NCBI RefSeq assembly: GCF_053078305.1
Contig: NZ_CP166879.1
Reading direction: 5' to 3' (one strand)
DNA: 64,000 nt
In this document: positions 21,401 to 24,400 of the stretch, in pieces
How the letters are laid out: every line of letters starts with the position of its first letter
Position numbering within the stretch: position 1 is the first letter of the stretch
Position numbers: made by a program

Positions 21401-24400
21401 GTTGAATAACCGGAGTTAACAATGTGTATTGGCGTTCCAGGCCAGGTGCTGGCTGTCGGTGAAGATATTCACCAGCTTGCGCAGGTTGAAGTATGTGGTA
21501 TCAAGCGCGACGTGAATATCGCCCTGATTTGTGAAGGTAACCCTGCCGATCTGCTGGGCCAGTGGGTGCTGGTACACGTCGGATTTGCCATGAGCATCAT
21601 CGACGAAGATGAAGCCAAAGCCACATTAGACGCACTGCGCCAAATGGATTACGACATTACCAGCGCGTGATGATTAGCTTTCGTAGGTCTGATAAGACGC
21701 GGCAGCGTCGCATCAGGCATTGTGCTCGATTGCCGGATGCGGCGTGAACACCTTATCCGGCCTGGATGGCTTGCTGTGACGAACGCTAACCCTTACCCCT
21801 GACGCTTATCTTCCGTATTCGTCTCAAAATCACTGGCGTCATGGCGCTCATGCAACTGCTCGTTCAGCGGCCCGTTGGTGCGGTTAACAATACGCCCACG
21901 TTTCACCGCCGGACGTTCGCCCACTTCTTTTGCCCAGCGTTGCACATGCTTATAACTGCCCGCATCAAGAAACTCTGCGGCATCATATACGCCGCCTAAC
22001 ACCACATTGCCAAACCACGGCCAAATCGCCATATCCGCAATGGTGTACTCATCGCCCGCAACAAACTTATGCTGCGCCAGTTGCTTATCCAGCACGTCGA
22101 GAAGGCGCTTGGCTTCCATGGTAAAGCGATTGATGGCGTACTCAATTTTCACCGGCGCGTAATGGTAAAAGTGACCAAAACCACCGCCGAGGAACGGCGC
22201 AGCACCCTGTAACCAGAACAGCCAGTTCATCGTTTCAGTCCGTTTTGCCAGATCCTGCGGCAGGAAGTAGCCAAATTTCTCCGCCAGATAAAGCAGAATC
22301 GATCCTGACTCAAACACGCGGATCGGCGGATTATGGGTATGATCGCGCAGCGCCGGGATCTTCGAATTTGGGTTCACTTCGACAAAGCCGCTGGAGAATT
22401 GATCGCCATCGCCTATGCGTATCAGCCAGGCATCGTACTCTGCGCCAGTAACGCCCAGCGCGAGCAGCTCCTCAAGCATAATCGTTACTTTCTGACCGTT
22501 CGGCGTTCCCAGCGAATAAAGTTGTAATGGATGTTTGCCCACCGGCAGCGTTTTTTCATGCGTCGGACCAGAAACCGGGCGATTGATATTGGCGAACGCG
22601 CCGCCAGCGGATTTATCCCACGTCCAGACTTTCGCGGGCTGATAAGTATTGTCTGTCATAGTGAGTTGCCTTCTGAGTGGTAGTGTTGAAGCAGTGTAGC
22701 AGGTCACTTGCTGTACAGAATGTGAATTTTTTAACCCTTTGCGCCAGCCGCTGCGATGAGGTGTATGATTAGTCTGACCTCTGTCCGGTTAATGTCGCTG
22801 AGCAGGTAATCAGAGCACAACAATTACGCCAACTGCTTAGGTTGTATTGTTAAAGGTAAAGTGATGAGCAAAGGAACGACCAGCCAGGATGCCCCGTTCG
22901 GGACATTATTGGGCTACGCCCCAGGTGGGGTAGCAATCTACTCTTCAGATTACAGTTCTCTCGATCCGCAGGAATACGAAGATGACGCCGTATTCCGTAG
23001 CTATATCGACGACGAATATATGGGCCACAAATGGCAATGCGTTGAATTTGCTCGCCGTTTTCTCTTTCTGAACTACGGTGTGGTCTTCACTGACGTGGGT
23101 ATGGCGTGGGAGATTTTCTCGCTGCGCTTCCTGCGTGAAGTGGTTAATGACAACATCCTGCCATTGCAGGCATTTCCTAACGGCTCGCCGCGTGCGCCGG
23201 TCGCGGGTGCGCTTCTTATCTGGGATAAAGGCGGTGAATTTAAAGACACTGGCCATGTCGCCATCATTACCCAATTGCATGGCAACAAAGTCCGTATTGC
23301 GGAACAGAACGTGATTCATTCCCCGTTGCCGCAAGGGCAACAGTGGACGCGCGAACTGGAGATGGTGGTCGAAAACGGCTGCTATACCCTTAAAGACACT
23401 TTTGATGACACCACCATTCTGGGCTGGATGATCCAGACGGAAGATACTGAATACAGCTTACCGCAGCCGGAAATTGCAGGCGAGCTGCTGAAAATCAGCG
23501 GAGCGCGTCTGGAAAACAAAGGCCAGTTTGACGGTAAATGGCTGGATGAACTGGGCTGGGATGCTGCCGGGCAACTGATTGATGGGGAAGGACGGCTGGT
23601 TAACTGCGTGTGGAAAACCTGGGCGTGGGAAACCGCGTTTGATCAGATTCGTGAAGTTAGCGACCGTGAGTTTGCTGCGGTGCCAATCCGTACCGGTCAT
23701 CCGCAAAACGAAGTGCGTCTTATCGACGTATTGCTGCGCCCGGAAGTGCTGGTCTTTGAGCCGCTGTGGACGGTGATCCCCGGCAACAAAGCGATTCTGC
23801 CGATCCTCTGGTCGCTGTTCCCGCACCATCGTTACCTGCTGGATACCGATTTCACTGTTAATGATGAATTGGTGAAAACAGGTTACGCAGTGAAACCGAT
23901 CGCCGGTCGCTGTGGTAGCAATATCGACCTGGTCAGCCATCATGAAGAAGTGCTGGACAAAACTAGCGGTAAATTTGCCGAGCAGAAAAACATCTATCAG
24001 CAACTGTGGTGTTTGCCGAAAGTGGACGGTAAATACATTCAGGTATGTACCTTCACCGTTGGCGGCAACTACGGTGGGACGTGTTTGCGCGGTGATGAAT
24101 CACTGGTTATTAAAAAAGAGAGTGATATTGAACCGTTAATTGTGGTGAAAGAGTAATACATGTTGTAGCAATCCCGTACTGATTATGAAGAATAGTCAGT
24201 ACGGGGATTAATCAAATATTCAATATTTATATATTCAAATATTTATTCATTTCATATGTGAATACATTAACCAGCAGAATGCCTGTGTTCTAATTATTTC
24301 TAAAGATTTTTAATGAATGCTTATTGTCTGATACACAAGAAATAACACTCTTTTTATCGTTAAAAAATGATATTTCACTTTGCCCACACCGTTAAAGTCA

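Follow-up and report, generated by a model that had tools for sequence, protein, structure and literature searches.

Why does a gss gene at its usual place in an Escherichia coli genome encode only 430 residues, and what is the shortened protein still able to do? E. coli Gss (GspSA; PDB 2IO7-2IOB and 3O98; NCBIfam NF007801) is a bifunctional enzyme of 619 residues with an N-terminal glutathionylspermidine amidase and a C-terminal synthetase. The short allele lies in the window, the 64,000 nucleotides of contig NZ_CP166879.1 that we analysed, and it shares both the gene and the locus of the known enzyme (hyb operon, yghU, gss, pitB). It differs from the known enzyme by the absence of residues 230-418, by a score below the NF007801 cut-off and by the loss of the Mg2+, glutathione and spermidine residues. 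We propose that the allele is a real, recent and strain-private slippage deletion, in effect a pathway null, which is tolerated, gss being dispensable. We give this reading a probability of roughly 0.88.

The open reading frame begins with ATG at 22864 and ends with a stop codon at 24154-24156. We took this ATG as the start because annotated orthologues use it; an automatic ORF list puts the start at GTG 22861, one codon upstream. When the product is compared with PDB chains by HMMER, it falls into two blocks on the 619-residue Gss chain 2io7. Residues 1-229 of the query correspond to residues 1-229 of the reference, and residues 226-429 correspond to residues 415-618. Hence the C-terminal part of the synthetase is present, as had been claimed from the sequence alone.

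To place the ends of the gap base by base we used the intact gss of strain 100181 as the reference (CDS 3265-5124 of the extracted locus, protein WP_001295514.1). The ORF in the window is 1293 nt long, compared to 1860 nt in strain 100181, which leaves an in-frame gap of 567 nt. As 567 is divisible by three, the reading frame survives. Over its 430 residues the protein agrees fully (100%) with WP_001295514.1, and the two genes differ outside the gap at three nucleotides, all of them synonymous. The 5' arm agrees with strain 100181 through gene nucleotide 687 and the 3' arm agrees from nucleotide 677 of the window gene onwards, so that the two arms overlap by the 11 nt GGCTGGATGAA. This repeat leaves the breakpoint ambiguous, and 227-415 and 230-418 are equivalent numberings of the missing residues. 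The linker between the two domains, residues 191-202 in the E. coli enzyme (PMC2427367), lies before the gap.

The sequence-only reading had given a reference length of 619 residues and had described a loss of about 189 codons after residue ~229, with the frame kept and a junction near 23550. All of this holds up in the alignment. The reference has 619 residues and not about 430, the deletion spans exactly 189 codons (567 bp), both of its ends are defined, and the junction is placed at 23540-23550. The features of the locus are collected in Table 1.

Table 1. Features of the gss locus, in coordinates of the window, with the evidence for each.
Feature	Coordinates	Strand	Evidence
yghU-gss intergenic and upstream region, unchanged	22660..22863	+	0 differences in 204 bp compared with strain 100181
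gss deletion allele, 430 codons plus stop, without reference residues 230-418	22864..24156	+	ORF call, HMMER, base-by-base comparison
N-terminal CHAP amidase domain, intact (residues 1-197)	22864..23454	+	3a2z alignment, Pfam CHAP, residue check
Other in-frame 11-bp direct repeat of gss, TTAAAGACACT	23240..23250 and 23390..23400	+	Both copies intact in the window
Interdomain linker and first synthetase-domain residues (198-225), retained	23455..23539	+	Comparison with strain 100181
Deletion junction, where one copy of the 11-bp direct repeat GGCTGGATGAA remains	23540..23550	+	Comparison with intact alleles
Remaining C-terminal part of the synthetase domain (residues 419-619 of the reference)	23551..24153	+	HMMER, residue check, Pfam

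How was the middle of the gene lost? A perfect direct repeat at both ends, one copy of which is kept, and a deleted length equal to the repeat spacing form the textbook scar of short-repeat misalignment (replication slippage or copy-choice). The gss allele carries every part of this scar. In the intact gene of strain 100181 there are exactly two copies of GGCTGGATGAA, at gene nucleotides 677-687 and 1244-1254, and they are 567 bp apart, which is the number of bases lost. The allele keeps one copy, and nowhere else in the 64-kb window does GGCTGGATGAA occur. It had been suggested that the junction falls on a short repeat encoding Leu-Asp-Glu, and that the deletion was mediated by this repeat if the full-length gene carries it at the distal end as well. 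Intact gss does carry the same repeat at the distal end. The suggested length needs correction, since the repeat extends over 11 bp and not 9.

Both copies of GGCTGGATGAA are also present in strain ES5, in GCA_002514385.1 and in two further loci (L005 and L009), and the proximal copy is found in every full-length locus that we examined. The probability that a random deletion has 11 bp of homology at its two ends is about 4^-11. The GGCTGGATGAA pair is among the three longest direct repeats of intact gss; all three are 11 bp long, and in two of them the spacing preserves the frame. Inverted repeats or hairpins by which the two copies might be brought together were looked for in intact gss, and none lies near the end points.

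We therefore arrive at a simple scenario for the origin of the allele, which we read from the scar. The two copies of GGCTGGATGAA, 567 bp apart in the ancestral gene, would have misaligned, and one copy would have been lost together with the intervening DNA. To judge from the scar alone, the likely route is RecA-independent replication slippage. The 430-residue protein would then be encoded in frame from an unaltered upstream region. Spontaneous deletions between short repeats, such as those that Albertini et al. reportedly described in lacI in 1982, likewise end on a perfect repeat, keep one copy and have a length equal to the repeat spacing. In contrast to the lacI-type deletions, the gss allele comes from a natural isolate and not from a selected laboratory mutant.

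The full 11 bp of homology hinge on a synonymous codon, CTG at Leu416, in the distal copy (positions 588-598 of the extracted loci L006-L009). K-12-type alleles and LF82 have TTG at this position, which reduces the homology to 8 bp, and MS1737 has CTA. Given this polymorphism, E. coli lineages may differ in their propensity for the GGCTGGATGAA deletion.

A second allele shows the same type of event elsewhere in the gene. The Gss protein P0029 (569 residues) lacks residues 127-176, His131 among them, through a 50-codon in-frame deletion that does not touch the synthetase. At the nucleotide level the deletion lies exactly at the TTAAAGACACT pair, at gene nucleotides 377 and 527, which are 150 bp apart. 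P0029 is encoded on four contigs, including NMHC01000039.1 (GCA_002514385.1; 1501-3210 of the extracted locus) and the Logan assembly of SRR6441158, and none of the 5,426 complete E. coli genomes has a TTAAAGACACT deletion of this type. Like the 430-residue allele it is a rare in-frame gss deletion at an 11-bp direct repeat, but it hits the amidase and not the synthetase. To go by its sequence, P0029 would be the reciprocal allele, with a broken amidase and an intact synthetase. Because the same type of event occurred at TTAAAGACACT in an unrelated E. coli lineage, P0029 lends independent support to a repeat-mediated origin.

Further singleton Gss proteins, mostly from ENA assemblies, have putative in-frame gaps: residues 302-373 in P0003, 421-443 in P0007, 254-312 in P0002 and 245-345 in P0076. 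Outside the gap P0003 and P0007 are nearly perfect matches to the E. coli reference, and there are only 5-6 bp of homology at their inferred ends.

What does the deletion do to the enzyme? According to the residue check, the deleted block holds Arg316, Asp318, Tyr329, Glu330, Asn332, Ser335, Ser337, Cys338, Asp387, Asp389, Glu391 and Glu392. The roles of many of these positions are known from related work. In Leishmania trypanothione synthetase the equivalents of Asp318, Glu330 and Asn332 coordinate Mg2+, and the equivalent of Arg316 aligns the glutathione carboxylate and stabilises the acyl-phosphate (PMC2427367). Tyr329 is part of the adenine pocket, and Ser335, Asp387 and Glu392 belong to the glutathione site (PMC2427367). 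Glu391 and Ser337 are key in spermidine binding and nucleophilic attack (PMC6272389). By this comparison Arg316, Asp318, Glu330 and Asn332 would be the residues that hold two Mg2+ ions and the triphosphate, and all four lie in the deleted block. The earlier expectation that the missing stretch contains the ATP- and Mg-binding residues is thus right for Arg316, Asp318, Tyr329, Glu330 and Asn332, but it does not extend to Lys498, Lys533, Trp571, Arg598, Leu603 and Val604. These residues are kept in the remnant, as is Lys607.

We transferred the subdomain boundaries of the Leishmania enzyme to E. coli numbering by alignment offsets. On this mapping the deletion would cost subdomain A the greater part of its N-terminal portion and subdomain B its start. 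Across 27 enterobacterial homologues the deleted block is nearly invariant. The profile searches show the same loss: the Pfam model GSP_synth is matched only at positions 192-370 of 371, and the NF007801 equivalog model gives 862.8 bits in two stretches, below its cut-off of 882 (the full-length protein of strain 100181 scores 1282). As a member of the bifunctional Gss family the protein is therefore incomplete. It has the CHAP domain with Cys59 and His131 and the position between yghU and pitB, but it falls short of the NF007801 score and lacks a complete ATP-grasp synthetase domain with the Mg2+/triphosphate, glutathione and spermidine residues. Because residues of all three sites are deleted, we strongly infer from the residues and the homologous structure that synthetase activity is lost. 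The C-terminal ATP-grasp region of the 430-residue protein is also shared with YgiC and YjfC (PDB 7UK8 and 7UK6; E=4e-19 and 1e-14). Unlike the shortened Gss, these two paralogues are whole ATP-grasp ligases and have no amidase domain.

The amidase half is a different matter. The sequence-only reading had described a complete CHAP domain with Cys59 in the motif HKWQCVEF and with His131, and the residue check and the alignment to 3a2z bear this out (Cys59 at 23038-23040, His131 at 23254-23256). Over its full length the crystallised amidase fragment of 197 residues (3a2z; E=1.8e-135) aligns with residues 1-197, and Pfam CHAP is matched at residues 52-149. This Gsp amidase fragment (residues 1-197; PDB 3A2Y, 3A2Z and 3A30), which is reported to fold, is contained whole in the 430-residue protein. 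The difference is that about 230 residues of broken synthetase domain are fused to the fragment here. In isolation the amidase domain is reported to have 10- to 70-fold the activity that it shows within the full-length enzyme (PMC6272389, PMC2427367). It is plausible that the allele is amidase-proficient, on the condition that the fusion protein is soluble. An AlphaFold2 model of the 430-residue protein has a mean pLDDT of 35 and is of low confidence even across the crystallised amidase domain; it was built on an alignment of 28 sequences with 82% mean identity.

With the synthetase lost, the strain is expected to be unable to make glutathionylspermidine. YgiC is not expected to compensate, because it does not make glutathionylspermidine according to Sui et al. 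2012, as that work is cited in PMC12506659. If no glutathionylspermidine is made, the amidase has no endogenous substrate, and hence the allele would act as a pathway null. Amidase proficiency would carry little weight in vivo for the same reason. The sensitivity to H2O2 reportedly did not differ between gss+ and gss-deleted cells, and a marginal difference has been seen only in a grx gss double mutant (PMC6272389). Hence the loss should be well tolerated. The allele is probably neutral, with the qualification that its three synonymous differences from the nearest allele are too few to separate a neutral from a selected history.

How widespread is the allele? Among 5,426 complete RefSeq E. coli genomes gss is present in 5,415, and the middle segment of the gene is present in all 5,415. 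A 51-bp query across the junction has no match in the 5,426 genomes; at the same threshold a 51-bp query from an intact part of gss, our positive control, matches 4,334 of them. A junction pattern with degenerate wobble positions had no match in the JGI metagenome contigs either. Among the best 120 homologue clusters every protein other than the 430-residue one is 519-649 residues long.

In one complete genome, that of strain 08_3449 (NZ_CP074909.1 867323-867894), the match to the middle of gss does not begin until query position 57, and the product has a differently spelled name, 'amidase/synthetase'. This odd match may reflect a disruption of the gene or a differing annotation.

The exact 430-residue protein is already public (KFD77722.1, WP_044186420.1 and YBJ03857.1) and forms a cluster of a single sequence at 90% identity. 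GenBank names it 'hypothetical protein JD73_00875' and RefSeq names it 'glutathionylspermidine synthase family protein', and both names are explained by the deletion. Positions 17864-29156 of the window are 100% identical to JPQG01000001.1 of GCA_000736735.1. This assembly is cited as 'E. coli 48' (JPQG00000000) in PMC5323612, where it serves as reference for subAB2-3, a variant of the subtilase cytotoxin. A search for a close relative among the complete genomes found none, the best match being 99.2% identical over 23 kb. The allele is private to the strain. It is previously undescribed, though already deposited, and both the gene and the mutational mechanism are well known.

A tolerated slippage deletion is not the only way to read these data. 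The frame could have been kept by selection, if the strain benefits from a de-repressed enzyme that has only amidase activity or from ending glutathionylspermidine synthesis. The preserved frame, start and upstream region, the lack of any amino-acid change in the remaining 430 codons and the higher activity reported for the isolated amidase are in line with such a benefit. But the allele is confined to a one-sequence cluster, and the surveys of complete genomes and metagenomes returned no second case. The raw material for the deletion is common: at least 2,255 of the 5,426 complete genomes contain the exact 41-mer that surrounds the distal 11-bp repeat, and the deletion is found in none of those. 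An in-frame outcome is also unsurprising when two of the three 11-bp repeat pairs are in frame. Furthermore, the amidase would have no substrate, and the three synonymous differences give no signal of constraint. We consider a selected origin very unlikely.

Selection can also be cast more boldly. The product would then be a stand-alone and de-repressed amidase, or a CHAP hydrolase that removes thiol adducts from another substrate, selected with synthesis abolished. Together with P0029 it would indicate that wild E. coli tune the two opposed Gss activities via in-frame deletions mediated by repeats. We regard this proposal as very improbable.

Alternatively, the deletion could be an artefact of sequencing or assembly, in which the assembler collapsed a full-length gss between the two repeats. 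The allele is indeed known from assemblies alone, and it is in no complete RefSeq genome. However, an 11-bp repeat is too short to cause a collapse; to our knowledge it is shorter than any assembler k-mer or read. The identical protein is encoded on two contigs of more than 1 Mb (1.76 Mb and 5.94 Mb), which may both derive from one strain. The flanking sequence is clean, and its colinearity with other genomes extends over 48 kb: positions 1-47990 of the window follow strain ES5 except for the gss deletion and a short ES5-specific insert between hypA and hybG. There is little chance that the deletion is an artefact. Engineering in the laboratory, for which in-frame internal deletions are a common knock-out design, is next to inconceivable for an allele that ends exactly on a natural 11-bp repeat, carries no scar, restriction site or FRT sequence, and stems from a strain cited as a reference genome (PMC5323612).

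The comparison with other strains revealed some differences and features away from gss. The hypA-hybG insert of strain ES5 is about 116 bp long (22410-22527 of the ES5 locus, corresponding to about 21405-21409 of the window) and is missing from both the window and strain 100181. It may be a small repetitive element. At 10574-10781 of the window, in the intergenic region after exbD, there are two adjoining stretches of about 96 bp, each of which matches two neighbouring stretches of the ES5 locus (11575-11670 and 11688-11782) with 93.8% identity, a pattern that points to a local tandem or REP-like repeat. The yghQ-yghO interval (window about 29700-39000, colinear with 30099-39107 of the ES5 locus) contains, according to the RefSeq annotation of ES5, a lipopolysaccharide biosynthesis protein and LptF/LptG-like permeases. 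The same annotated block includes a serine palmitoyltransferase (spt), an acyl carrier protein, an epimerase and a fatty acyl-AMP ligase. This block is possibly a cluster for a sphingolipid-like lipid.

We regard the short gss as a sporadic loss-of-function allele of the ordinary kind, in a gene that is dispensable. It offers a clean case, from a natural isolate, of an in-frame deletion that ends on short repeats, and it has small import beyond the strain. The probable slippage deletion leads to a simple prediction: strain 48 should contain no glutathionylspermidine. Together, the 430-residue allele and P0029 would form a natural pair of separation-of-function alleles. They are possible reagents to ask why a synthetase is coupled to an amidase that undoes its product.
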